Assembly (NCBI GenBank): GCA_965237635.1
Contig: CBDEFX010000001.1
Location: forward strand, 290,176 to 354,175
Reading direction: 5' to 3'
DNA length: 64,000 bases
From: Dehalococcoidia bacterium
Lineage (GTDB): Bacteria; Chloroflexota; Dehalococcoidia; Lucifugimonadales; CAUZJF01
Shown here: positions 551 through 61,753 of the stretch, piece after piece
How positions within the stretch are numbered: position 1 is the first letter of the stretch
Layout: each line of letters opens with the position of its first letter
The notes under the pieces: model-generated
What the model was told of the DNA's origin: nothing
Databases searched by the model: none
Seen by the model: the letters and a program-made list of their open reading frames with translations, nothing else
Translations under genes and position numbers: made by a program

Positions 551-1072
551 ATGCAGACTAACAACTTCGATACCCATAGGCTGATATCGGTGATCCCGAT
601 TCTTCCCCACGACCATGTAGCCGACATAGGTTGCGGGTCCGGTTACTTTACCGTCCCCCTCGGCAAGTTTCTATTTGACGGCAAAGTCTATGCTCTTGAC
701 AGGAAGCAGAACAACCTAGACGCGACTCGGGAAGCGCTGGAAGCCGTGCGTCTGACCAATGTCGAGACGTTACTCTTGAACGAGAAGAAGCTCCCGCTTG
801 AGGACGAGTCCTTGGACGGCGCTCTTGTCGCCTTCGCTCTGCAAGATATCAAGAATCCCCGGGCGTTACTCAAAGACACGCTCCGTTGTTTGAAAAAGTC
901 GGGATGGCTGGCGATAATCGAGTGGTACAAGCGGGATATGGACGAGGGGCCGCCTCTGGAACAGCGAAGCGACGAGGACAAGCTGAGGGAGATGACCCAA
1001 AAGTTGGGGTTCCGCTCGATAGCCCGGCGTGACCTCAACGGCAAACAGTACCTGATGCTCATGAGAAAGTAG
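551..1072 (+). CDS. class I SAM-dependent methyltransferase
   Basis: Motif [11 protein letters not shown] plus a typical post-I/II layout in a 173-aa ORF. Confidence 0.8.
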
Positions 1073-2219: not shown

Positions 2220-2834
2220 ATGATACAGCTAGACGACAAGGGCCTTGTGCCTGCCATTGCGCAAAACGCTGCTACCGGCGAGGTGATCATGCTTGGGTAC
2301 ATGAGTCCCGGCTCGCTGAAGCGTACCCTCGAAGGGTCTGATGTCTGGTTCTACAGCCGCAGCCGCGCCGACCTCTGGCATAAGGGCGAGGTCTCTGGCA
2401 ACTACATGCGGGTCAAGTCGGCGGCCATCGACTGCGACGGGGACGTGGTCCTCCTGCAGGTCGATCCCGACGGGCCTATCTGCCACACCGGCAATCCCAC
2501 TTGTTTCTTCACGCCGCTTGAAGAGCTTCCGGAGTTCGCGCACTCGACAAAGGGTCCGGGGATCGTAGATGAGCTGTTTGCCCTCATACAGGACCGCAAG
2601 CGCGACATGCCTGAGGACAGCTACACGACGCGGCTTTTCAACGAAGGCGTGGACCGCGTGAGCCAGAAGGTGGTCGAAGAAGCCGCGGAAACAGCGATCG
2701 CCGCGGTAAAGAAGGACAAAGAACAAGTCGTCAGCGAGGCCGCCGACCTCCTTTACCATATCTTAGTGCTGCTGGCGGCCTCGGACGTTAAGCCTGAGGA
2801 TGTGTGGACGGAGCTCAGGCAACGCCGCAAATAG
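2220..2834 (+). CDS. hisIE: bifunctional phosphoribosyl-AMP cyclohydrolase / phosphoribosyl-ATP diphosphatase HisIE
   Basis: Internal ATG at 2220 (MIQLDDKGLVPAIAQ). HisI signature CDGDVVLLQVDP..CHTG and the HisE helical C-terminal half. Sequence upstream of 2220 is REP hairpins. Confidence 0.9.
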   Translation: MIQLDDKGLVPAIAQNAATGEVIMLGYMSPGSLKRTLEGSDVWFYSRSRADLWHKGEVSGNYMRVKSAAIDCDGDVVLLQVDPDGPICHTGNPTCFFTPLEELPEFAHSTKGPGIVDELFALIQDRKRDMPEDSYTTRLFNEGVDRVSQKVVEEAAETAIAAVKKDKEQVVSEAADLLYHILVLLAASDVKPEDVWTELRQRRK

Positions 2835-2970
2835 GGCTCCACGCCTCCGCCGCATCTCATCAAAGCGTAGAGAAAAGGCCGATGACCTCGCACTGGGCGA
2901 TGGTGTATATTCACCTCAACGACTCAGACTAGCTTTGGAACGGCAAGAGGAGCGCGGGGAGAGCGTCCCA

Positions 2971-3873
2971 ATGAGCGCGGTAATAAAGACCGACTATCTC
3001 AGCAAGTCCTACGGTGGCGTTCAGGCTGTCTCCAACATCAACCTGGAGGTCCAAGAAGGCGAGGTATTCGGTTATCTCGGCCCCAATGGAGCCGGTAAGA
3101 CGACCACTATCCGCGCCCTGCTGGACTTGATCCGGCCTACGAGTGGAAGCGCCTCGATATTTGGGCTCGATTCCCGAGCCCACAGCCGCGAAATCAAGCG
3201 GCGTTTATCCTACCTCCCCGGTGACATCATGCTCTACGAAAAGCTGACTGGCCGGGAGGCGCTGGCTTACGCGGCGAACCTGCGAGGAGGCGTGGACTGG
3301 GACTTCGTCGAAGAGCTGGCCGAACGCCTCGAGTGTGACTTGACCCGGCAGATCCGCTCGCTCTCCCGTGGCAACAAACAGAAGGTGGGCCTGGTCAAAG
3401 CGTTCATGGGCAAGCCTGATCTGATTATCATGGACGAGCCCTCGAGCGGGTTGGACCCCTTGATGCAGCAGGAGTTCTACCGCCTGATCGAGGAGGTCAA
3501 GGCCGACGGCCGCACGGTGTTCATCTCGTCACACATAATGCCGGAGGTTGAGCGGGTCTGTGACCGCGTAGGGATCATACGTCAGGGCGAGCTGGTCACG
3601 GTGGAGGACATCAACGCCCTCAGGGAGCGCGCGCTACACCAGCTGGAGTTCCACTTTTCCACATCTGTGCCCCCGGAGGCCTTTGACAACCTGACGGGGG
3701 TACGAGACGTGGCGGTCAACGACAGCGTCCTGACCTGCACCGTCATGGGCAAACCGGCCGCTCTCATCAAGGCTGTAGCGAAATTCGAGGTGGTCAAGCT
3801 GGTCAGCCACGAGCCCCATTTGGAGGACGTGTTCCTATCCTACTATGGCGAAGGTGAGCAGCATGCTGCGTAA
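2971..3873 (+). CDS. ABC transporter ATP-binding protein (ABC-2 exporter type)
   Basis: ATG at 2971. Walker A GPNGAGKTT, signature LSRGNKQKV, Walker B LIIMDEP. Confidence 0.9.
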   Translation: MSAVIKTDYLSKSYGGVQAVSNINLEVQEGEVFGYLGPNGAGKTTTIRALLDLIRPTSGSASIFGLDSRAHSREIKRRLSYLPGDIMLYEKLTGREALAYAANLRGGVDWDFVEELAERLECDLTRQIRSLSRGNKQKVGLVKAFMGKPDLIIMDEPSSGLDPLMQQEFYRLIEEVKADGRTVFISSHIMPEVERVCDRVGIIRQGELVTVEDINALRERALHQLEFHFSTSVPPEAFDNLTGVRDVAVNDSVLTCTVMGKPAALIKAVAKFEVVKLVSHEPHLEDVFLSYYGEGEQHAA

Positions 3874-4660
3874 CGTGTTTCTGAAGACCCTCTGGGACCA
3901 GCGACGCTCACTGATGTGGTGGGCCATCGGCCTAGTCTTGTTCACGGTGCTTAACGTGCTCTTCTATCCCAGCTTCAAGGACCAGTCAGCATTTAACGAG
4001 CTCTTGGGCGAAGAGGACTCCATAGTGAGGGCGTTTGCGGGAGACGTCGACGATTTTACTTCGCCCGAGGGGTTTCTCAATAGCCAGATGTTCTTCTTGA
4101 TGGTGCCGCTGCTGCTGCTGGTCTACGGCATCACGCGCGGGAGCGGTGACATCGCCGGCGAGGAGGAACGCGGCACCCTTGATGTCTTGCTTTCGAATCC
4201 CTTAACCCGCTTCCAGGTACTGGTCCAAAAGTTTGCGGCGATGATCGCTACGATATTCTTGCTGGCACTGGTCATCTGGGCGAGCCTGGCGGTGGGCGCG
4301 CTGCTGGTGGATATGGACATCAGCTTCGTGCGGATGGCGGAGGCGACCCTCAGCGCGGCGCTCCTGGGTGTGGCCTTCGGCTCGGTGGCACTGACGCTCG
4401 GCAGCGCCTTCGGAAAGCGCGGTATGAGCATCGCTGTAGCCGGCGCTATCGCCGTTGTCGCCTATTTCCTCAACTCGCTGAAACCCATCGTGGACGGCAT
4501 CGAACCATTCAGCAGGGTGTCGCCCTTCTACTACTACATCGAGGCGGACCCGCTATCCAACGGCCTGGACCTCGTGCACGCCGCCGTCCTGGTCGGCATG
4601 ACGATCGTGCTGGTCGCCATTGCACTCGTCACGTTCGAAAGGCGCGACCTAGCCGTATGA
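3863..4660 (+). CDS. ABC-2 family transporter permease
   Basis: Multi-TM protein translationally coupled to the ATPase. Start is either ATG 3863 or ATG 3845. Confidence 0.7.
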   Translation: MLRNVFLKTLWDQRRSLMWWAIGLVLFTVLNVLFYPSFKDQSAFNELLGEEDSIVRAFAGDVDDFTSPEGFLNSQMFFLMVPLLLLVYGITRGSGDIAGEEERGTLDVLLSNPLTRFQVLVQKFAAMIATIFLLALVIWASLAVGALLVDMDISFVRMAEATLSAALLGVAFGSVALTLGSAFGKRGMSIAVAGAIAVVAYFLNSLKPIVDGIEPFSRVSPFYYYIEADPLSNGLDLVHAAVLVGMTIVLVAIALVTFERRDLAV

Positions 4661-4678
4661 CCCAGAGACCTACTTTGG

Positions 4679-5013
4679 GTATGCCGAGCAGCCCCCGCTC
4701 CCGATATCCCGAGTAGCCCGTCGGGGCGTATCGAGGGACCAGTTGCGCCACCCGGAAACCTGCTCCAGGGTATGCCGAGCAGCCCCCGCTCCCGATATCC
4801 CGAGTAGCCCGTCGGGGCGTATCGAGGGACCAGCTGCGCCACCCGGAAACCTGCTCCAGGGTATGCGGAGCACCGCCGCTCCCGAGTAGCCCGTCGGGGC
4901 GTATCAAGGGACCAGCTGCGCCACCCGGAAACCTGCTCCAGGGCATGCGGAGCACCGCCGCTACCGAATATCCCGAGTAGCCCGTCGGCCCGTCGGCGTA
5001 TCGAGGGACCAGC
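4679..5013. repeat. tandem array of about four units of a ~91-bp structured noncoding repeat
   Basis: Units begin at 4679, 4770, 4861 and 4943. Core is atatcccgagtagcccgtcggggcgtatcgagggaccag. The unit length is not divisible by 3. Confidence 0.85.
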
Positions 5014-10904: not shown

Positions 10905-12716
10905 TTACCGTCTCTTGCGAGCTTTGGTCCTCCGTGGAGGGCCACGCCGCGCCGCGCCGCCTTGGGATCCTCCGGTACGACGCCCACGCCTGGATCCCAT
11001 TCTGGCCTTATTCAGTTCGTCTATGTCCTCGGCGAACCTGATAACTCCCGGTTCCAGAGTCCTCAAGCCACGAGTAGACCAAACATTGTCTGGCAGCTGA
11101 TCTATCGAAGTAGCGGTGTCGGTAACACCAACCGGCTGGGCTTCCGGCTTCTCTGCTTCTCCGGCTCCAGCAGGCACCGCCACCGGTTCGGCCGGGACCT
11201 TTTTCTCCGCAGGCGCCTCCGCCCCCTCGGTCGCGACCTCCGCAGCGGCCTGTACAGCCGCCAAGACCTCCGCCGCCTCTTCTACAACTGGCTTCTCTTC
11301 GGGCTTGGCTTCCCCAGGCTCCGCGGTGGCGGCCACCGACTCCTCAGACGGGACCTCGACCGGTGCTGCCGCCTCCGGCTCTTCCGCCTCGGCGACCGCG
11401 ACTTCCTCTGGCGCGGCCTCGACCGGTTGCGGAGCAGCATCTACGGGCTCAGTGGGAAGCAGGTTCAACTCCCCAAGCCGGCCATACAAGTCATCCAATG
11501 CTTTCTTGCCAAATCCACTGATCTTGAGCAGGTCGGACTTTTCCATCTCTAAGATCTGCGCTACTTTATCGACGCCCGACTGCTTCAGGACGTTTAGAAC
11601 GCGAGTGGCCAGGCCAACATGCTCCAGTGCCATGTCGGGCCCCACGGCCACTGGAGCTGCCTTGGCGCCCTCTTCGGCAGGCGCGGTCTCAACGTCGCTC
11701 TTTATGTCGACCTTCCATCCTGTTAGCCTCGCCGCAAGCCTGGCATTCTGACCTTCTTTGCCAATTGCTAGCGACAGCTGCCGTTCGGGCACGATGGCAA
11801 CGGCGGTCCCAGCCTCTTCGTCGAGGTCGACGCGCATGACCATCGATGGGCTCAGTGAGCTGGAGATGAACGCAGCGGGGTCCTTGTTCCACTGCACCAC
11901 GTCTATCTTCTCGCCATGTAGCTCGTTGACGATGTTCTGAATACGGATCCCTCTCAGACCGACGCACGACCCAACAGCGTCTACCCCGTCCTGTTTGGCC
12001 CAGACCGCTACCTTGCTGCGCCACCCTGCCTCTCTAGCAATGGCTACGATTTCGACCGAGCCGTTGTAGATCTCCGGCACCTCAATTTCAAACAGCCGTT
12101 TTAGAAGCAGCTTGTCCGCCCGAGAAACGATGATCTCCGGCCCCTTGTTGGACTGCCGGATCGACTGGAGTAGGACCTTTATCTTCTGGCCTATGCGATA
12201 TCGCTCATAGGGGGCCTGCTCGGACGCCGGTAAGATCGCCTCGGCGCGGCCCATCTCCACAATTAACTGCTTGGGCTCCATCCTCTGGACGGTGACGGTG
12301 AATACGTCGCCCTCTTTGTCGGCGTACTCCTGGAATACCAGGTCCCGCTCCGCCTCCCTCAAGCGCTGCATCACCACTTGCTTCGCCGTCTGGGCGGCGA
12401 TGCGCCCGGCAATGTGGCCAAGACTCTGCGTCGCGACCACCTCGCCTACCTGCGCATCCTCCCTTAACTTCCTGGCCTCCGACAGCTCGATCTCCTGGTC
12501 GGGATCAGATACCTCCTCGACCGCGGTCTTTACGGCATATACACTTACCTCTCCGCTTCCAGGGTCCAACTTGACGGAGATATCCTGGCCGAAGGCTACG
12601 CTGTCCCTTTTGTAGGCGGATACAAGCGCAGCTTCGATCGCCGACAGCACGATCTCTCTCGGCAAATTGCGCTCGGCGGCCAATTGTGTCAAAGCAATAA
12701 TGAAATCGCTCTTCAT
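10905..12716 (-). CDS. nusA: transcription termination/antitermination factor NusA with a long acidic low-complexity extension and an Arg-rich tail
   Basis: NusA N-terminal, S1 and KH domains are recognisable (VGEVV..V, IAREAGWRSKVAVW, GSCVGLRGIRIQNIVNEL, AIGKEGQNARLAA). The C-terminus is A/E/P-rich and ends RRGRRTGGSQGGAARRGPPRRTKARKRR. Confidence 0.95.
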   Translation of the reverse strand: MKSDFIIALTQLAAERNLPREIVLSAIEAALVSAYKRDSVAFGQDISVKLDPGSGEVSVYAVKTAVEEVSDPDQEIELSEARKLREDAQVGEVVATQSLGHIAGRIAAQTAKQVVMQRLREAERDLVFQEYADKEGDVFTVTVQRMEPKQLIVEMGRAEAILPASEQAPYERYRIGQKIKVLLQSIRQSNKGPEIIVSRADKLLLKRLFEIEVPEIYNGSVEIVAIAREAGWRSKVAVWAKQDGVDAVGSCVGLRGIRIQNIVNELHGEKIDVVQWNKDPAAFISSSLSPSMVMRVDLDEEAGTAVAIVPERQLSLAIGKEGQNARLAARLTGWKVDIKSDVETAPAEEGAKAAPVAVGPDMALEHVGLATRVLNVLKQSGVDKVAQILEMEKSDLLKISGFGKKALDDLYGRLGELNLLPTEPVDAAPQPVEAAPEEVAVAEAEEPEAAAPVEVPSEESVAATAEPGEAKPEEKPVVEEAAEVLAAVQAAAEVATEGAEAPAEKKVPAEPVAVPAGAGEAEKPEAQPVGVTDTATSIDQLPDNVWSTRGLRTLEPGVIRFAEDIDELNKARMGSRRGRRTGGSQGGAARRGPPRRTKARKRR

Positions 12717-12757: not shown

Positions 12758-12780
12758 GAAAGTGGGGCCACCCCACTTTC
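12758..12780 (-). promoter_or_regulatory. terminator-like hairpin in the nusA 5' leader
   Basis: Minus strand gaaagtgggg-tgg-ccccactttc (perfect 10-bp stem) followed by tttgtt. It lies between the predicted promoter and the nusA RBS GAGGAGG. Confidence 0.5.
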
Positions 12781-17370: not shown

Positions 17371-18087
17371 ATGGGCAAAAGCTCACCGAACGCAGGCGGC
17401 TCGTCGTCCATCTCGCAAGAAGCCGTAATAGAGCGTTTACGGAACGCGCTCGCGGACGGCCACGATTGGGCTACGTCCATGGTCGAGGCGATAGCGCTGT
17501 GGACCACCCCGCTGGAGGTATTCCGCGGCAGGCGTTACAACTACTTCGTCGATGGCGAGGCCTTCGACTGGCTGCTCCTGGCGGAGCGACTCTGCCAGGC
17601 CACAGACGGGCTCATCCCGCAGAAAGAAAGAGAGAGCCTGCTATTCTCAGGCAAGTTCCCCTCTTCGTTCGACCACTCCACATTGAAAAGCCTGCTGGGC
17701 GTGGAGAAGTACCGGGCGTACCTCAACTACTACTACGGCGTGACCGTAGAGGAAGCGCTGCAGCTGGCTACCGAGCTAGAAGTCCACAAACGGCATTTAG
17801 GCAACGGCGTCCGATACAGGGACGACTACACCGACGAGGCACACGTCAAGATCTACGGCTCGACCCGGAGAGAGCTACTTAAGACGTTCCGAGAGGAGAT
17901 CGGCTTGCCGTCGCGGCGGTACCTCAGCCTCGGCGAATCGAAGGAGTTCACCTACTGGCTGTTCAAGTACCGGCTGAGGGCCTCGGACAAAGCAAAGACT
18001 GCTAGCGACACCAGAAAGGGTCTCCACCAGCTCGAGCGCATGGGAGAGGCGTTCAGTCCGCAGGCAGAGCCGCTACCCCAACCTTGA
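17371..18087 (+). CDS. hypothetical protein (238 aa), no family recognised
   Basis: Long ORF with coding-like composition. It is in the same frame as the preceding PolX-N ORF, separated by one TGA and four codons. Confidence 0.5.
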   Translation: MGKSSPNAGGSSSISQEAVIERLRNALADGHDWATSMVEAIALWTTPLEVFRGRRYNYFVDGEAFDWLLLAERLCQATDGLIPQKERESLLFSGKFPSSFDHSTLKSLLGVEKYRAYLNYYYGVTVEEALQLATELEVHKRHLGNGVRYRDDYTDEAHVKIYGSTRRELLKTFREEIGLPSRRYLSLGESKEFTYWLFKYRLRASDKAKTASDTRKGLHQLERMGEAFSPQAEPLPQP

Positions 18088-20754
18088 CAGGATCTCCTTG
18101 ACCCTGGCGCGACGGCCCTCGATGTCGTTGAGCCGCTGACGCTCTCGCTCGACCACCTCTTCCGGCGCCTTCCCGATAAACTGTTTGTCACCCAACCTTG
18201 CCGACAGCCTCTCCCGATTGGTGTCGATCTGCTCCAGCTCCTCGTGCAGCCATGCCTTCTCCCGCTCGAGGTCAACGAGACCCCCGAGAGGCACGGTAAC
18301 CGACCCCCTGCTCAGCACCAGCGAGACCTGCTGGGCTGAATCGGCGTCGGCTGCCGCTGGAGCGTCGGCGCCAAACCTTAGCGGGTCCACCCGGGCCAGG
18401 GTCTTAATCGCGTCTGACTCCGCCTCGACCACATCTCTGATCGCCGGCGCGTCTACGATGGCCTCGACCGCCTGGTTGGCCTCAATACTGAACTCGGCGC
18501 GAATATTTCGTATGGCGCGGACTATTTCCATGACGTCGCCAACATTGCCTTCGGCCTCCTCGTCGAATAGCGTGAGGTCAGCCTCCGGATATCCGGCTAC
18601 TATCAGCGCTGACGGTGCGCCCTCCTCGCGCGGAAGCAGCTCGACCAGGTTCTGCCATATCTCCTCGGTGATAAAGGGCATGAACGGGTGCAGGAGCCTC
18701 AAAATCCGCTCCAACACATATGCCAGCACCGGCAACGGCGACTCGTCGCCGCCCCGAAGCCTGACCTTCGACATCTCCAGGTACCAGTCGCAGTATTCGC
18801 CCCACAGGAAGTCGTGGACCTCCCTCTGGGCCTCTCCGAACTGGTACTCCTCCATGAATTTCTGCACTTGCTCGGCGACTCTGTTGAGGCGGCTGAGAAT
18901 CCAGCGGTCCTCGAGGTGTGTAGGCTTTGCGGGAGTCCGGCTCCACTCATCAAACGTCTCGGCCCGGTCTAGACTGGCCATGACGAATCGCGATGCGTTC
19001 CACAGCTTGTTGGCGAAGTTGCGGCTAGCCTCCATCTTCGACTCGTTGAGGCGCATGTCGTTGCCGGGCGACGTGCCCGTAGTAAGTGCAAAGCGGAGCG
19101 CGTCTGCACCGTACAGGTCGATCAGGTCCAGCGGGTCCATCACGTTCCCCTTGGACTTGCTCATCTTGACACCCTCTGGGTCCCTGACGAGCCCGTGCAG
19201 GTAGACAGTCCGAAACGGGACGTCGCCGGTGTTCTCCAGGCCCATCATTATCATGCGAGCGACCCAGAAGAAGAGGATGTCGTGGCCGGTCTCCATGTCG
19301 GTGGTCGGGTAGAAGTAGCTCATGTCTTCGCTCTGGTCTGGCCAGCCCAGAGTCGAGTGGGGCCACAGGGCGGAGCTAAACCACGTATCTAGGACGTCCG
19401 AGTCCCTTGCGAGCTTGCTCGAGCCGCACTCGCTGCAGGCGGTCGGGTCTTCGTAGTCGACCGTGACGCCATCGCATTCTTCGCAGTACCAGACTGGGAT
19501 CCCGTGTCCCCACCAGAGCTGCCGGCTGATGCACCAGTCCCGGATGTTGTACATCCAGTTGTCGTAGACCTTCGCGAACCGCTCGGGGATAATCCTTATC
19601 CGGCCGTCCTTCACGGCTTCGATGGCCGGCTTGGCCAGCGGCTCCATGCGCATATACCACTGCTTGCTGACTATCGGCTCCACGACGTCGCCGGACCGGT
19701 CACAGTGCCCCACCGAGTGGTGGTAGTCCTCCACCTTCTCAAGGAGGCCGTCCCTCTCGAGCTCCTCTACGATCTCACGCCTGGTCTCGAAGCGGTCCTT
19801 GCCCTTGTAGTGGCCGGCGTTCTCGTTCATCGTGCCGTCGAGGTTCATGACGCTTACGATGGGCAGCTCATGCCGCTCGCCTATCTCGAAGTCGTTTGGA
19901 TCGTGACCCGGCGTGACCTTGAGCGCGCCGGTGCCGAACTCCATGTCGACCGCGTCGTCGGCGATGATTGGGATGGTCCGCCCTATTACCGGAAGAACGA
20001 CGTTCTTTCCAACGAGGCCCGCGTAGCGCTCGTCTTCAGGGTTCACCGCAACAGCGGTATCCCCGAGCATAGTCTCTGGCCTGGTCGTGGCGACGGTAAT
20101 CGAGCCGCTCCCGTCTTCCAACGGGTAACGGATATGGTAGAGGCTGGCGCTCTCCTCCTGGTGCTTGACCTCCAGGTCCGACAGCGCGGTCGCACAATGT
20201 GGACACCAGTTGACGATCCGTTCCCCCCGGTATATCAGACCTTTCTTGTACAGGTTGACGAACGTAGTGCGGACTGCGCGGCTTGGCCCCTCATCCAGCG
20301 TGAAGCGCTGGCGCGTCCAGTCGCAGGAGACACCAAGCCGCTTGATCTGCTCGTAGATGGTGCCTCCGTACCGATCTACCCACTCCCACACCTGTTCGAC
20401 AAACTTCTGCCTGCCCAGGTCATGGCGGCTCATGCCATCGGTGGCCAGCGTTCGCTCCACGACCACCTGCGTTGCGATGCCTGCGTGGTCCGTTCCCGGG
20501 AGGTAGAGGGTAGGGTCGCCCTTCATCCTGTGCCAACGTACCATTAGGTCTTGCAGCGCCTTGGTAAGAGCGTGGCCCATGTGCAGCTCGCCCGTGACGT
20601 TCGGGGGAGGCATGATGATTACGTACGGCTGCTTCGAGCGGTCGATCTTCGGGATAAAGTAGCCGCCCGCCATCCAGGAGTCGTAGATGCGCTGCTCGAC
20701 GGCCTTAGGGTCGTAGGCCTTGGCAATCTCTCGCTTCGCCTTTTCCTGGCTCAT
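18073..20754 (-). CDS. valS: valine--tRNA ligase
   Basis: ATG 20754 (MSQEKAKREIAKAYDP) with GGGAGG upstream. HIGH-type PPPNVTGELHMGHA, the KMSKS motif itself, and a C-terminal coiled coil. The track ORF start 20817 would run through a terminator hairpin. Confidence 0.95.
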   Translation of the reverse strand: MSQEKAKREIAKAYDPKAVEQRIYDSWMAGGYFIPKIDRSKQPYVIIMPPPNVTGELHMGHALTKALQDLMVRWHRMKGDPTLYLPGTDHAGIATQVVVERTLATDGMSRHDLGRQKFVEQVWEWVDRYGGTIYEQIKRLGVSCDWTRQRFTLDEGPSRAVRTTFVNLYKKGLIYRGERIVNWCPHCATALSDLEVKHQEESASLYHIRYPLEDGSGSITVATTRPETMLGDTAVAVNPEDERYAGLVGKNVVLPVIGRTIPIIADDAVDMEFGTGALKVTPGHDPNDFEIGERHELPIVSVMNLDGTMNENAGHYKGKDRFETRREIVEELERDGLLEKVEDYHHSVGHCDRSGDVVEPIVSKQWYMRMEPLAKPAIEAVKDGRIRIIPERFAKVYDNWMYNIRDWCISRQLWWGHGIPVWYCEECDGVTVDYEDPTACSECGSSKLARDSDVLDTWFSSALWPHSTLGWPDQSEDMSYFYPTTDMETGHDILFFWVARMIMMGLENTGDVPFRTVYLHGLVRDPEGVKMSKSKGNVMDPLDLIDLYGADALRFALTTGTSPGNDMRLNESKMEASRNFANKLWNASRFVMASLDRAETFDEWSRTPAKPTHLEDRWILSRLNRVAEQVQKFMEEYQFGEAQREVHDFLWGEYCDWYLEMSKVRLRGGDESPLPVLAYVLERILRLLHPFMPFITEEIWQNLVELLPREEGAPSALIVAGYPEADLTLFDEEAEGNVGDVMEIVRAIRNIRAEFSIEANQAVEAIVDAPAIRDVVEAESDAIKTLARVDPLRFGADAPAAADADSAQQVSLVLSRGSVTVPLGGLVDLEREKAWLHEELEQIDTNRERLSARLGDKQFIGKAPEEVVERERQRLNDIEGRRARVKEILSRLG

Positions 20755-20799
20755 GCCGAAGTCCTCCCGCGGGCTGTCCGATCGCTCCCTGCGCCATAC

Positions 20800-20830
20800 A
20801 AAAAAAGGCCCGAACACGACGTTCCGGGCC
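20800..20830 (-). terminator. intrinsic terminator inside the valS 5' leader
   Basis: Minus strand ggcccggaac-gtcgt-gttcgggcc followed by seven U. The U tract ends 45 nt upstream of the valS ATG. Confidence 0.7.
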
Positions 20831-20858
20831 TCGGGTCAACTGCTGGAGTGCGTTGATC

Positions 20859-20918
20859 CTAAGGCTTTGTCCTGAATACGACTACGTTTGATTGAGATCT
20901 ATCGACTTTGTCTGCCAT
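20859..20918 (-). CDS. candidate 19-codon leader peptide with Val-Val-Val
   Basis: AGGA then ATG 20918. Translation MADKVDRSQSNVVVFRTKP, stop TAG 20861..20859. Val codons GTA GTC GTA at 20885..20877. Confidence 0.35.
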   Translation of the reverse strand: MADKVDRSQSNVVVFRTKP

Positions 20919-20938
20919 TGCTTTATCCTAAGGCACAC

Positions 20939-20967
20939 ATTCTAGTAGACGACACAGTCCACGTCAA
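20939..20967 (-). promoter_or_regulatory. candidate sigma70-type promoter of the valS leader
   Basis: Minus strand TTGACG-N17-TAGAAT. Confidence 0.5.
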
Positions 20968-21103
20968 TGAATGATACTCACGCATGGGATGCGGTCAGAA
21001 GCCGTCGGTAAGGTCTCTCGTGGTAGGGGCGCACGGCGTGCGCCCTTGCGATAGCCACTGCCCTTAGAAACAAACCTACGAAATCTGATCACGTCCAGGC
21101 ACA

Positions 21104-21633
21104 CTACTCCGTGGCGGAACCTCGAAGGCCCAGCACCCCCCGCATGCCCTCGATCATGCCCAGGTGGCGGTTATCGTGGTCGAGATTCGTCAAAAGGGCC
21201 CTGGCGACGGTCCGTCCGCCCCACTTCGCGGCCTGCTGGGACCGCTCCTCGTCTAGCAGGCCGGCCATCTCATCTGCGGCGTCGAAAGCGCGACGGCAGT
21301 AGTCGAGAAGGTCACCCTTGCTCGGCCACGGGAGGCGATCCGGGACCTCGGATTCCATGCCAGTTCCAGACTCGTAGATGCCCAAAAGCTCCGGGCCAAA
21401 ACCCCATTGCTCCGCCAGGTTTTCGGCCTGCCAGATCATGCCGCCCTCGAAGCCGACCTGGTCGGGGAGCGAGTCGGCGTACCGGGCAAGGTGCCACAGG
21501 TGGAAGGCGATCGGAGGAGTAGTTGGATTGGGCTGTGGCTCAGCTGATCATCGGTCAGATCTGCAACGACTTCGAGTACCCGTCTGTGTGTTCTAAGATA
21601 GCTTGAAACGACGGTCTCGGGAATGTGGCTCAT
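21104..21633 (-). pseudogene. DinB-family protein interrupted by a 1-nt frameshift
   Basis: ORF 21436..21633 ends ..LTDDQLSHSP. The DinB signature NPTTPPIAFHLWHLARYAD continues in another frame into ORF 21104..21439. The junction is at agcccaatcc, about 21525..21535. Confidence 0.75.
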
Positions 21634-21685
21634 CGGTCACCCCTCGTAGCGGCAAGTGTGGTCCATTCTTGATTCGAGAAGACTG

Positions 21686-22057
21686 TCACAACGCCATGTT
21701 GAGGTGTATCTTTAGAGCGTTTTCTATGCGGGCTCGGTACTCCTCTGGGAGACGGCCGACAACTCTCAGCAACCTTCGTTTGTCTATGGTTCTCACCATG
21801 TTGGCCTTAATGCGGTTGTTGTCCTGCGTGAGGCCTGCCACGCCCTTTGGCACCAAAACCTCGTCAGGGTACGCTCGTTTCGCCGGGGCGGACGTTATAG
21901 GGAGCACTGTGACCGTCGCAGCGTATTGATTGTTCAGGTTGTTGGACACGACAACAACGGGCCGGCGTTTGCCGATTTCGGAGCCCATGACCGGTTCAAG
22001 ATCAGCGAACCACACGTCTGCGTATCTAGGATGATTCGCCAGAGGCTCCTCGCTCAT
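21686..22057 (-). CDS. type II toxin, PemK/MazF family endoribonuclease
   Basis: DVWFADLEPVMGSEIGKRRPVVVVSNN...VTVLPITS pattern. ATGA overlap with the upstream antitoxin. Confidence 0.85.
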   Translation of the reverse strand: MSEEPLANHPRYADVWFADLEPVMGSEIGKRRPVVVVSNNLNNQYAATVTVLPITSAPAKRAYPDEVLVPKGVAGLTQDNNRIKANMVRTIDKRRLLRVVGRLPEEYRARIENALKIHLNMAL

Positions 22058-22314
22058 CCCCCAACCCGGTCCTCTTCGTATTCAGGCCACCCCTGCAAAG
22101 TTGCAGGCTCCCACTCTGCGTTAAGTCCCTTGTCTTCCTCATATCTCTCGATGTACCCGGCGATCAATGACCTTCTAACAGCCTCATTCTCCAAATTCAT
22201 GAGCTTTTCACCAACCGCAGTCGTAACGAACGCGCTACGTTGGCGCTCTACTACAGAGTCTCTGAATTTGCGGGCTATCTCTTCGGGGATCGTGAACGTC
22301 ATCCTGACATTCAT
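22054..22314 (-). CDS. ribbon-helix-helix type antitoxin (MazE/CopG-like)
   Basis: ATG 22314 preceded by AAGGAG. N-terminal beta-strand MNVRMTFTIPEEIARKF, then helices and an acidic tail. Confidence 0.65.
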   Translation of the reverse strand: MNVRMTFTIPEEIARKFRDSVVERQRSAFVTTAVGEKLMNLENEAVRRSLIAGYIERYEEDKGLNAEWEPATLQGWPEYEEDRVGG

Positions 22315-22416
22315 CGGCGTAAAATCTCCTTTTCGTTGATGGGACAGTATGAACAGCATACCATACACTCAGTATGTGCTCTTAGTTAGTATACATCCTC
22401 TCGGGCCCGGGAGTCA

Positions 22417-23286
22417 TCACGGCAGCCTCTCTTTGACCCGACTGGTGAGGTCGACTAGCTGTCCAACTTCCCGCACCGGTTCTTGGTCCTCCGACACAGC
22501 GATGTGCGTCTGGACCGTGTATATCCGCTCCCGAAGCACGACGAAGCTGCCCACTCCGGCCTTATTGACGACAGCCTGAAAGGACTCGGTCCCTAAGACA
22601 CCGGTTGTTACTTCGCTCCCTTGGAAACCGCTCAAGATATTCTCGAAGTGTGCCTTCGCTGAGGGCTCAGAGTCGAAGCTGATCACGGTCACGAGGACGC
22701 CACCGGAGCCGTCGAGGGTCTCGTGGGACGCCTGGCACATGCTCACGATGCTCGGGTCGTCCTCCCTCGCCACCTCAGTGAACTCCCTGGTCTTTAACAC
22801 CATGTTCGAGGGAGGTTCGTCCAGGAACCCATTGCACGTCTTCAGATCGACGCCGAAGAGCTCGGACAACGGCACCTCGGTCACCGCGGCGGCCAGGGGT
22901 GATAGCGTGAAGACCGTGTCGACCGAGAAATCGAGCGTCGAGGTCTCGCCGCTCCTGACTTCCACAGAGTGTTGCCGCAGCACGTTCCCATCGTCGTCGT
23001 ACACGGCCACCTTGAAGGTGCCTGGCTGGATATCGGAGAACAAATAGGACCCGTCTGAACTGGTAAACGGGGCTATCTCTGGAAACGGGACCGTCCCGCT
23101 CACTATTCCCAACCTCAGACCGGCGCCCGGGGCTCCTTCTGTATCTGTTACTTTGCCGCCAATTTGGCCGCTCGGGGTTGGCCCTTCATCGCCGTCCGGC
23201 GCTTCGGGGGTTTCGGAGCACGCCGCTATTGCTGCGAGAGCGGCTGCTACAATCGTCATGGTCCGGAATGCGACGAACTTCTTCAT
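22417..23286 (-). CDS. secreted lipoprotein with a carboxypeptidase-regulatory-like (beta-sandwich) domain
   Basis: Signal peptide plus lipobox AAIAAC. GKVTDTEGAPGAGLRL...SDGSYLFSDIQPGTFKVAV resembles CarboxypepD_reg. Confidence 0.6.
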   Translation of the reverse strand: MKKFVAFRTMTIVAAALAAIAACSETPEAPDGDEGPTPSGQIGGKVTDTEGAPGAGLRLGIVSGTVPFPEIAPFTSSDGSYLFSDIQPGTFKVAVYDDDGNVLRQHSVEVRSGETSTLDFSVDTVFTLSPLAAAVTEVPLSELFGVDLKTCNGFLDEPPSNMVLKTREFTEVAREDDPSIVSMCQASHETLDGSGGVLVTVISFDSEPSAKAHFENILSGFQGSEVTTGVLGTESFQAVVNKAGVGSFVVLRERIYTVQTHIAVSEDQEPVREVGQLVDLTSRVKERLP

Positions 23287-28034: not shown

Positions 28035-28065
28035 CTGCAGACCTCCATCGTTACTACTTTAAAGA

Positions 28066-28206
28066 AGAGAAGACTCAAGACTCTTTTCCCACCCGCCCTA
28101 TCGTTGTTTTGCTGGGGGTTCCCCCAAACCCCCGCCAAGGGGGCGTCGCCCCCTTTGGAAACTCCCTTGGCACCATTTTAATGGGAATGGCTTTTTGTGC
28201 GAAGCC
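28066..28206 (+). repeat. copy A of a ~140-bp dispersed repeat rich in G5/C5 runs
   Basis: gagaagactcaagactcttttcccacccgcc...gctgggggttcccccaaacccccgccaagggggcgtcgccccctttggaaa. Closely matches 30211..30358 in the same orientation. Confidence 0.8.
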
Positions 28207-29127: not shown

Positions 29128-29156
29128 TTGACACGTTGGGTGCCAGTCCGTACACT
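29128..29156 (+). promoter_or_regulatory. candidate sigma70-type promoter of the cysH leader
   Basis: TTGACA-N17-TACACT. Confidence 0.5.
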
Positions 29157-29165
29157 AGATCCAGC

Positions 29166-29270
29166 ATGTTTGTAGGAACGTCAGCGAATTCCATGGTCTG
29201 CATGTGTTCTTGTCCCCTCAGCTCGGGGGCTCGGGCGGGTCCAACGCCGCCCAGGCACGTGCAGGCGTAG
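29166..29270 (+). CDS. candidate Cys-rich leader peptide (34 codons)
   Basis: ATG 29166 lies about 3 nt from the predicted transcription start, so it is near-leaderless. Translation MFVGTSANSMVCMCSCPLSSGARAGPTPPRHVQA. Cys codons at 29199, 29205 and 29211. Stop TAG 29268..29270. An alternative ATG is at 29193. Confidence 0.35.
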   Translation: MFVGTSANSMVCMCSCPLSSGARAGPTPPRHVQA

Positions 29271-29296
29271 CACACCGCTTAATACTCGGAACCCAG

Positions 29297-29331
29297 CCCC
29301 TCGAGCCCAGACCGCTCGGGGGGTTTTTTTT
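29297..29331 (+). terminator. intrinsic terminator inside the cysH 5' leader
   Basis: cccctcgagc-ccagacc-gctcgggggg followed by eight T. It ends 25 nt upstream of the cysH ATG. Confidence 0.7.
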
Positions 29332-29356
29332 GGCCTTTTCACGGCGAGGAAGTCAG

Positions 29357-30157: not shown

Positions 30158-30210
30158 GCCTGTCCCGGCTTTGCACCAGAAATCTCTGCGACTTGCTACC
30201 CTTAGGAGAT

Positions 30211-30358
30211 GAGAAAACTCAAGGCTCTTTTCCCACCCGCCCACCCTATCGTTGTTTTGCTGGGGGTTCCCCCCAAGCCCCCGCCAATTGGGCGTCGCCC
30301 CCTTTGGAAACCCCCTTAGGGCGCCATTCTTGTGGGAATGTCTTTTTAGTGCTAAGCC
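30211..30358 (+). repeat. copy B of the ~140-bp dispersed repeat
   Basis: gagaaaactcaaggctcttttcccacccgcc...gctgggggttccccccaagcccccgccaattgggcgtcgccccctttggaaa. Direct repeat of 28066..28206. Confidence 0.8.
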
Positions 30359-32409: not shown

Positions 32410-32577
32410 GGTACAGGAGCAGCCTCCCGAATATCCTGAGTAGCCCGTCAGTGCGTATCGAGGGACCAGCGCGGCACCAGAGACCTACTCAGGTGTATAC
32501 GGGGAGTGGCCCCCCCGAATATCCCGAGTAGCCCGTCGAGGCGTATCGAGGGACCAGCCGCGTGAAACGCGGGCTAG
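32410..32577. repeat. two further units of the ~91-bp repeat family seen at 4679..5013
   Basis: cccgaatatcc(t/c)gagtagcccgtc...gcgtatcgagggaccagc occurs twice. The junction ccagagacctact also matches 4662..4674. Confidence 0.8.
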
Positions 32578-61679: not shown

Positions 61680-61753
61680 TGCCCGGTGGTGTAGTGGTAG
61701 CACACGGGACTTTGGATCCCATGACCCAGGTTCGAATCCTGGCCGGGCAGCCA
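61680..61753 (+). tRNA. tRNA-Gln (anticodon UUG), CCA encoded
   Basis: Hand-folded cloverleaf. Acceptor tgcccgg/ccgggca with the U1-A72 pair. D stem gtgt/acac. Anticodon loop cuUUGga. T arm ccagg-ttcgaat-cctgg. Discriminator G plus CCA. Confidence 0.9.

Follow-up and report, generated by a model that had tools for sequence, protein, structure and literature searches.

The gene for valine-tRNA ligase (valS) in an uncultured Dehalococcoidia bacterium (Chloroflexota) is preceded by a short leader that probably acts as a ribosome-mediated, leader-peptide transcription attenuator, tying valS transcription to the supply of charged tRNA-Val. The leader lies in a 64,000-nucleotide (nt) stretch of contig CBDEFX010000001.1 (assembly GCA_965237635.1, positions 290,176 to 354,175), hereafter the window, in whose coordinates all positions are given. 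It combines three of the features by which attenuators are recognised: a short open reading frame (ORF) that can be translated, cognate codons that are conserved, and a terminator not followed by any promoter-like site. Comparison with homologous leaders documents the parts of the element, their order and conservation, selection on the codons of a valine run, RNA-level conservation of a GCCUUAG block, and the lack of a promoter-like site between terminator and gene. An initial annotation had suggested a ribosome-mediated attenuator at this site, and the retention of a homologous ORF, Val run and terminator in nine lineages supports that reading.

Organization of the valS leader

The leader (20650..21250) was read on the minus strand, where all coordinates were rechecked. 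Its promoter, AGGA motif, ATG, 19-codon ORF, hairpin with U tract and valS ribosome-binding site are all present where the initial annotation had placed them. The features are as follows.

20962..20967, minus strand: -35 hexamer TTGACG of the valS/leader promoter, with a 17-nt spacer to the -10
20939..20944, minus strand: -10 hexamer TAGAAT of the valS/leader promoter
20926..20929, minus strand: Shine-Dalgarno-like AGGA, 7 nt ahead of the leader ATG
20859..20918, minus strand: leader ORF of 19 codons plus TAG, encoding MADKVDRSQSNVVVFRTKP followed by the stop (ATG 20918..20916, TAG 20861..20859)
20877..20885, minus strand: three Val codons in a row, GTA GTC GTA, the proposed sensing codons
20859..20865, minus strand: GCCUUAG block, made up of the third base of the Lys codon, then CCU (Pro) and the stop codon UAG
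20861..20865, minus strand: GCCUU, proposed as 5' strand of the antiterminator, copying the junction between terminator 3' arm and U tract (GGGCCUU)
20833..20859, minus strand: middle hairpin GG.UCAACGC...GC.GUUGA.CC, beginning at the last base of the stop codon
20828..20832, minus strand: GAGGC, base of the terminator 5' arm and proposed antiterminator 3' strand, common to both mutually exclusive structures
20800..20832, minus strand: intrinsic terminator, a 10-pair stem (20832..20805) with an overlapping run of seven U (20806..20800)
20763..20768, minus strand: valS ribosome-binding site GGGAGG, from sequence reading
18073..20754, minus strand: valS (valine-tRNA ligase, 893 amino acids), the gene proposed as regulated

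The promoter (TTGACG-17-TAGAAT, scoring 10/12) is the best sigma-70-like match in 18000..23000, a region with 4 promoter-like sites versus 1.3 expected from shuffles, and ATTGACG is invariant across the alignment of five leader-bearing loci. Transcription would begin about 7 nt past the -10, near 20932, placing the leader ATG at 20918 about 14 nt past the start. The leader stop codon is followed after 28 nt by the terminator hairpin, which alone has a computed folding energy of about -17 kcal/mol, and about 45 nt separate the terminator from the valS ATG (20754). Strong U-tract terminators are scarce in the window, and the best three all lie in 5' leaders (nusA, valS and cysH). Homologues of the valS product carry the Pfam domains tRNA-synt_1, Anticodon_1 and Val_tRNA-synt_C and are named valyl-tRNA synthetase (ValRS) by their source. 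The suspicion that GTA is an unusual valine codon here was correct: in the 32 long ORFs of the window it accounts for 13% of Val codons, compared with 41% for GTC and 34% for GTG.

These parts suggest a mechanism in which the site of transcription initiation, translation of the leader, the reach of the ribosome, antiterminator function and sensitivity to valine are all inferred. Transcription would start at TTGACG-17-TAGAAT, and the 19-codon leader would be translated while the polymerase moves ahead. When Val-tRNA is ample, the ribosome would reach the Pro-UAG end of the ORF, its footprint lying over both GCCUUAG and the middle hairpin's 5' half; with GCCUUAG covered, the terminator (20832..20800) would form unopposed and most transcripts would stop short of valS. 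When Val-tRNA is scarce, the ribosome would stall with a Val codon in its A site and its front edge about 12-13 nt downstream, just before GCCUUAG. The free GCCUU could then pair with the base of the terminator 5' arm atop the middle hairpin, so that the stem cannot close beside the U tract and, with the stem open at its base, the polymerase would continue into valS. Peptide release at a C-terminal Pro, and at Pro-UAG, is slow, and such slow release could give the polymerase time to complete the terminator.

Conservation of the leader among Dehalococcoidia

By its ValRS protein, the window belongs to uncultured Dehalococcoidia, and related proteins are labelled 'SAR202 cluster bacterium' by their sources. 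The comparison took in about 40 valS loci of close relatives (SAR202-like Dehalococcoidia), here given L numbers, that came from a collection with one genome per species, from JGI metagenomes, and from eleven look-ups of individual homologues (roughly 80% ValRS identity, spread across a ValRS similarity clustering). Loci were collected by ValRS similarity alone, with no leader feature in the selection, and the Val run was therefore not selected for. A homologous leader is present in nine lineages, with ValRS identities to the window protein of about 75-82%; most of the new leaders came from the look-ups, and the metagenome ValRS scan added only L061 and L062, near-copies of L026. Alignment counts below refer to ten leader sequences from these nine lineages. 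The encoded peptides, each ending at its stop codon, are as follows, with the run at the sensing position set off by hyphens.

Window: MADKVDRSQSN-VVV-FRTKP
L002: NKSRQANQ-VVV-TGTRP
L007: RKN-VVV-SREWP
L026 (with L061 and L062): MRKN-VVV-TREWP
L111: MTATVQMLALN-VVV-SGAKP
L112: MVETVNSPELT-VVV-PVP
L114: MSQPAVSHRLD-VVV-WGAWP
L119: MTTNTQRQDRT-VVV-PRP
L120: MTITAHRSDLN-VEV-SRAWP

The leader ORF has an ATG or GTG start in all nine lineages. Purine runs of the AGGA, GAGGA or GGAAG type precede the start in L007, L026, L111, L112, L114 and L119, and in L120 and L002 the Shine-Dalgarno sequence is weak or missing. Outside the Val run and the terminal Pro, the peptides are unrelated, differing in both length and sequence. 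The conservation check that the initial annotation had called for thus found the Val run kept, as V-V-V in 8/9 lineages, and its codons carry the clearest sign of constraint: apart from the single GAA codon of L120, positions 1 and 2 are invariant in the alignment, while the third position varies in all three codons. Variation confined to third positions, as seen in the alignment, bears the mark of selection on codon identity and not on RNA sequence. The 26 leader Val codons across the nine lineages comprise 15 GTA, 10 GTC and one GTG, a GTA share of 15/26 against the 13% seen in the genes of the window.

A second layer of conservation appears at the end of the ORF. GCCUUAG is the most conserved block of the leader, and in all nine lineages the Val run stands five codons ahead of its UAG. 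A TGG-to-TAG change in L112 and L119 shortens the ORF by two codons, leaving the block untranslated; both nevertheless retain (G/C)CUUAG, which indicates constraint at the RNA level, and both keep the Val run at the same distance from the UAG of the block. Pro is the last sense codon in all ten ORFs, those of L112 and L119 included, where the codon now before the stop is CCA in place of the GCA or ACA of relatives.

Could these features simply reflect a short ORF that happens to lie beside a terminator belonging to the gene upstream? Among the random intergenic short ORFs of the window, dozens contain three identical residues within a stretch of five, so that the Val run is weak evidence within this genome, and enrichment in one genome was not used as evidence. 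The arrangement is nonetheless kept in nine lineages, which excludes chance, and the probability that we would still allow it is close to nil. Furthermore, 272 nt separate the end of the upstream gene in the window from the hairpin, a strong promoter lies in that interval, and the upstream genes differ among loci.

Linkage of the leader to valS

Over the ten leader loci, 23 to 97 nt separate the U tract from the valS start, with the shortest spacer in L119, and none of these spacers contains a promoter-like site. In leaderless relatives (L001, L004-L006, L113, L116, L117, L121 and others), a promoter of the TTGACG / TAGAAT type and a short untranslated region stand directly before valS. Among leader loci, the upstream neighbour differs (DFP/YtfJ-like, acetyltransferase or ABM), and the leader always adjoins valS. 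Together, these three observations imply that valS must be transcribed through the terminator.

They also bear on the suggestion, raised as an alternative in the initial annotation, that the region is an independent small gene, encoding either a small RNA or a 12-19-residue peptide beside valS, with valS served by unregulated leak-through or by an unrecognised promoter. The element is a compact promoter-to-terminator unit of about 130 nt, as such a gene might be. Rfam models of small RNAs show sub-threshold similarity to it, the best at 20 bits against a 50-bit cut-off when the leader was searched at E<=10, and this similarity is due to the terminator alone. We consider a small gene quite unlikely: the spacers of the lengths given above contain no promoter-like site at any of the ten loci, leaderless relatives have a similar promoter immediately before valS, the peptide is conserved in neither sequence nor length beyond the Val run and terminal Pro, and the element sits beside valS whatever the upstream gene. 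No other copy was found in 464 kb (window plus loci), either by a regular-expression scan without a Val requirement, which returned only the ten valS leaders, or by a covariance model of the alignment from Val run to terminator, which scored those ten at 68-90 bits and matched nothing else. The element is therefore not a dispersed repeat, and calls of 'no leader' at other loci hold.

The surroundings of valS differ in other ways among the sampled loci. Leaderless L003, L115 and L118 have transposase, integrase or methyltransferase genes directly upstream of valS, which suggests that rearrangements contributed to a patchy loss of the leader. Leaderless L001, L005, L006 and L113 share the motif (A/T)TTCGTA(G/A) within the promoter spacer just upstream of valS; the motif, which leader-bearing valS promoters lack, may be an operator for a protein, taking the place of the attenuator. 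In the window, a GC-rich hairpin without a U tract (GGGCGCACGCCGTGCGCCC, at about 21022..21045, minus strand) lies upstream of the valS promoter, and a near-identical copy lies upstream of valS in leaderless L110 (about 955..975). This hairpin could either terminate the gene upstream or represent a repeat.

RNA structures and the putative switch

The terminator is conserved as a structure, with all 10 pairs standard in all 10 sequences (100% of cells) and 2 pairs changed on both sides. The middle hairpin is predicted by RNAfold in the window, L002, L007, L111, L112, L114, L119 and L120, and is weak in L026 and L061. Its stem is based on UCAAC/GUUGA in six lineages and has been replaced with pairing kept in L002 and L007, and 3 of its pairs show changes on both sides. 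We propose that the middle hairpin is the core of the antiterminator, given these predicted folds, and it may also act as a pause hairpin. In the candidate antiterminator, GCCUU (20865..20861) would pair with GAGGC (20832..20828), enclosing and stacking on the middle hairpin; this outer helix can pair in 49/50 alignment cells.

The effect of a stalled ribosome was modelled by placing each Val codon in the A site, with a footprint reaching 12-13 nt downstream, and folding the RNA until the terminator 3' arm emerges. With the ribosome on any of the three Val codons, the antiterminator is predicted in 10/10 sequences. With a ribosome positioned on the stop codon, GCCUUAG is masked and the downstream RNA folds to the terminator only. 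The balance was then computed at the decision point, taken as the moment when the U tract is still in the RNA-DNA hybrid. There, the antiterminator with the upper terminator stem and the middle hairpin with the full terminator lie within 0-1.4 kcal/mol of each other in 6/10 sequences, the window included. In intrinsic termination, the critical step is the closing of the stem base beside the U tract, and in the trp leader of Bacillus subtilis an overlap of about four nucleotides between antiterminator and terminator suffices. That leader offers a precedent for a few-nucleotide basal overlap deciding termination, with the difference that its switch is set by the TRAP protein binding RNA, where a translating ribosome is proposed for valS.

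Several observations weigh against the attenuator reading, and most of them concern this switch. The initial annotation had found no convincing antiterminator by eye; the GCCUU/GAGGC helix now provides a candidate pairing, which takes only 3-6 of the 9-12 terminator pairs, at the stem base. That this outer helix can pair adds no independent support, since a copy of the terminator 3' arm will in any case pair with the 5' arm. Folding with the ribosome at each Val codon gave the GCCUU helix alone, with no stronger or alternative antiterminator, and a classical anti-antiterminator (region 1:2) is not visible in the valS leader. The full-length minimum-free-energy fold is the terminator in every sequence, computed barriers from antiterminator to terminator are only 3-7 kcal/mol, and at the decision point the terminator is favoured by 6-9 kcal/mol in L002, L112, L026 and L061. 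The leader as a whole folds no better than shuffled sequence (z = +0.6), so that global stability is no evidence either way. In addition, L120 has V-E-V (on a contig with about 6x coverage), L002 has no clear Shine-Dalgarno sequence or ATG, and the leader is absent from about three quarters of the sampled close relatives. The antiterminator switch is plausible on these folding predictions, and it is the weakest part of the case.

A weak RNA-only antiterminator would gain from a stabilising factor, and the position of the middle hairpin is conserved. Control might then be independent of the ribosome, with a protein (for example ValRS, by analogy with Escherichia coli threonyl-tRNA synthetase acting on its own leader) or uncharged tRNA binding the middle hairpin and the Val codons being incidental. 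There are documented cases in which tRNA synthetases and other RNA-binding proteins regulate themselves by way of their own leaders (PMC2965389). This alternative seems very unlikely: it leaves unexplained the third-position-only variation of the Val codons, the fixed spacing from Val run to UAG and the start codons, and no T-box signature is present, though T-boxes are readily detected in valS leaders of Anaerolineae. The loop sequence of the hairpin is also unconserved. A tRNA-Val mimic in that loop was considered and rejected, with no consistent Val anticodon-like triplet across lineages.

The terminal Pro raises a further alternative, in which the ribosome is held at Pro-UAG by a small molecule such as free valine, so that nascent-peptide or termination arrest, and not Val-tRNA, provides the signal. 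E. coli TnaC, in which the ribosome is held at Pro24-UGA, is a model for such a sensor, and its appeal here comes from the Pro that ends every one of the ten ORFs, even where L112 and L119 have acquired a new CCA codon. In eight ORFs, however, the Pro codon CCU falls within the RNA-level conserved GCCUUAG, so that selection on the codon is unnecessary, and L112 and L119 are probably of single origin. The peptides have only V-V-V and Pro in common, unlike known arrest peptides, and sensing by Val codons gives a simpler account of the link to valS. We regard an arrest sensor as highly improbable, and return to the Val-codon attenuator in the comparisons that follow.

Comparison with known systems

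Attenuation of a synthetase gene is established experimentally for E. coli pheST, which is controlled through the pheM leader peptide. The two leaders share a short ORF with cognate codons, an intrinsic terminator and a downstream synthetase gene, and the same logic would be expected of both: a low level of charged tRNA causes stalling, and stalling causes read-through. They have no sequence relationship, and they differ in amino acid, gene and phylum. The pheST leader forms classical alternative hairpins, whereas in the valS leader no anti-antiterminator was seen and the antiterminator overlap is short. To our knowledge, described leader-peptide attenuators come from Proteobacteria, Actinobacteria and a few Firmicutes, and among the synthetase genes, pheST is an experimental case and trpS, leuS and hisS paralogues are predicted ones. 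Text searches of the literature returned no valS leader peptide and no leader-peptide attenuator from Chloroflexi, though with limited coverage this is absence of evidence only. The predicted cases outside Proteobacteria are trpS2 and leuS in Streptomyces (PMC1262725) and hisS paralogues in bacilli (PMC2965389). As in the valS leader, a cognate-codon ORF, a terminator and an antiterminator precede synthetase genes in these predictions, and the evidence is comparative-genomic; the synthetases and phyla are different.

Another type of leader that senses tRNA charging is the T-box. At Rfam gathering thresholds, the sole match in the whole window is a tRNA at 61680, and the leader region (20700..21150) has no match to the T-box family RF00230 even at E<=10, bearing out the earlier remark that no T-box is present. 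As a positive control, the same model scores 104-114 bits upstream of valS in four Anaerolineae (L024, L027, L028 and L034), which belong to Aggregatilineales/Phototrophicaceae. In L024, the T-box occupies 2716..2946 and valS begins at 3001; GUC stands at the position read as the T-box specifier, and a tRNA gene (about 2605..2677) lies immediately upstream of the T-box. The likeness between the two types of leader consists of position, conditional read-through of a terminator, and tRNA-Val charging as the variable. They differ in that the T-box binds uncharged tRNA directly and needs no translation, while the window leader has neither T-box sequence nor T-box structure. The occurrence of the Anaerolineae T-box at the same position before valS points to the same control point in the phylum with a different sensor, and exchanges of one sensor for the other, T-box or leader peptide, have been documented (PMC2965389).

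The cysH leader and other elements of the window

The initial annotation had also pointed to a similar layout before cysH, and the corresponding parts are indeed present there.

29128..29356, plus strand: cysH leader, a candidate Cys-codon attenuator upstream of the cysH-sat/cysC genes
29128..29156, plus strand: promoter TTGACA-17-TACACT
29166..29270, plus strand: leader ORF encoding MFVGTSANSMVCMCSCPLSSGARAGPTPPRHVQA followed by the stop, containing C-M-C-S-C (Cys codons at 29199, 29205 and 29211)
29221-29231, plus strand: proposed antiterminator strand GCUCGGGGGCU, predicted to pair with the terminator 5' arm
29295..29325, plus strand: terminator of 12 pairs with eight U

The cysH product matches PF01507. 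In folds with a ribosome on the Cys codons, GCUCGGGGGCU is predicted to occupy most of the terminator 5' arm. In a relative whose CysH is 72% identical (L122/L123, 760..1000), the promoter and terminator are kept and the ORF is a different Cys-rich one, MLTSRLVGSLVCVCMSAVALGTGLSPGSPVCRCVHV followed by the stop, which contains VCVC and VCRC. From its sequence, the cysH leader is a second attenuator of the valS-leader type, with Cys codons and a long antiterminator, conserved in one relative. Its closest known relatives are the actinobacterial leaders in which a short ORF with clustered Cys codons precedes sulfate-assimilation genes (PMC1262725). Those leaders lack recognisable terminators (PMC1262725), whereas in the cysH leader the U-tract terminator is strong and the antiterminator long.

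A bolder interpretation can be built on the two traits of the valS leader that are unusual as read from its sequence, namely a very short antiterminator without an anti-antiterminator, and an invariant Pro-UAG. The leader might be a minimal three-part attenuator that dispenses with an anti-antiterminator hairpin, the ribosome held at a slow Pro-UAG filling that role and the terminal Pro serving as a timing device. In a stronger version, termination at Pro-UAG would itself be modulated, as in TnaC. On this interpretation, the valS and cysH leaders would together point to a lineage-specific set of ribosome-sensed attenuators in SAR202 Dehalococcoidia, replacing the T-boxes found elsewhere in the phylum. 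We consider this interpretation unlikely.

Other elements were noted elsewhere in the window. The 5' leader of nusA (10905..12716, minus strand) contains a perfect 10-pair hairpin, GAAAGTGGGG-TGG-CCCCACTTTC, at 12758..12780 (minus strand), followed by TTTGTT; it lies about 40 nt before the nusA start codon and downstream of a TATACT -10-like box, and may be a leader terminator for NusA autoregulation. An intergenic repeat of roughly 110 nt (about 90% identity) flanks the cysH unit at 28063..28168 and 30207..30317. A second repeat family consists of roughly 91-nt tandem units with the core CCCGAGTAGCCCGTCGGGGCGTATCGAGGGACCAG, at 4616..5007 and 32423..32562, the copies lying 27 kb apart. Both families look like repetitive extragenic palindromic (REP) or miniature inverted-repeat transposable (MITE) elements, and they inflate spurious ORF calls where they occur.

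Implications

A Val-codon attenuator on valS in an uncultured SAR202-type Dehalococcoidia bacterium would be a new pairing of amino acid and gene in a new phylum, while the mechanism itself is classical. It would provide an uncultivated lineage with a directly testable regulatory element that could be assayed in a heterologous host. For annotation, it carries the warning that ORFs of this kind, 12-19 codons long, are probably regulatory rather than protein-coding. With its short antiterminator and invariant Pro-UAG, the leader may offer a compact model for the minimal RNA needed in ribosome-controlled termination. Finally, the distribution of leaders suggests that sensors have been swapped within one phylum, with a T-box before valS in Anaerolineae, a probable leader peptide in the lineages described here, and neither in many of their close relatives.

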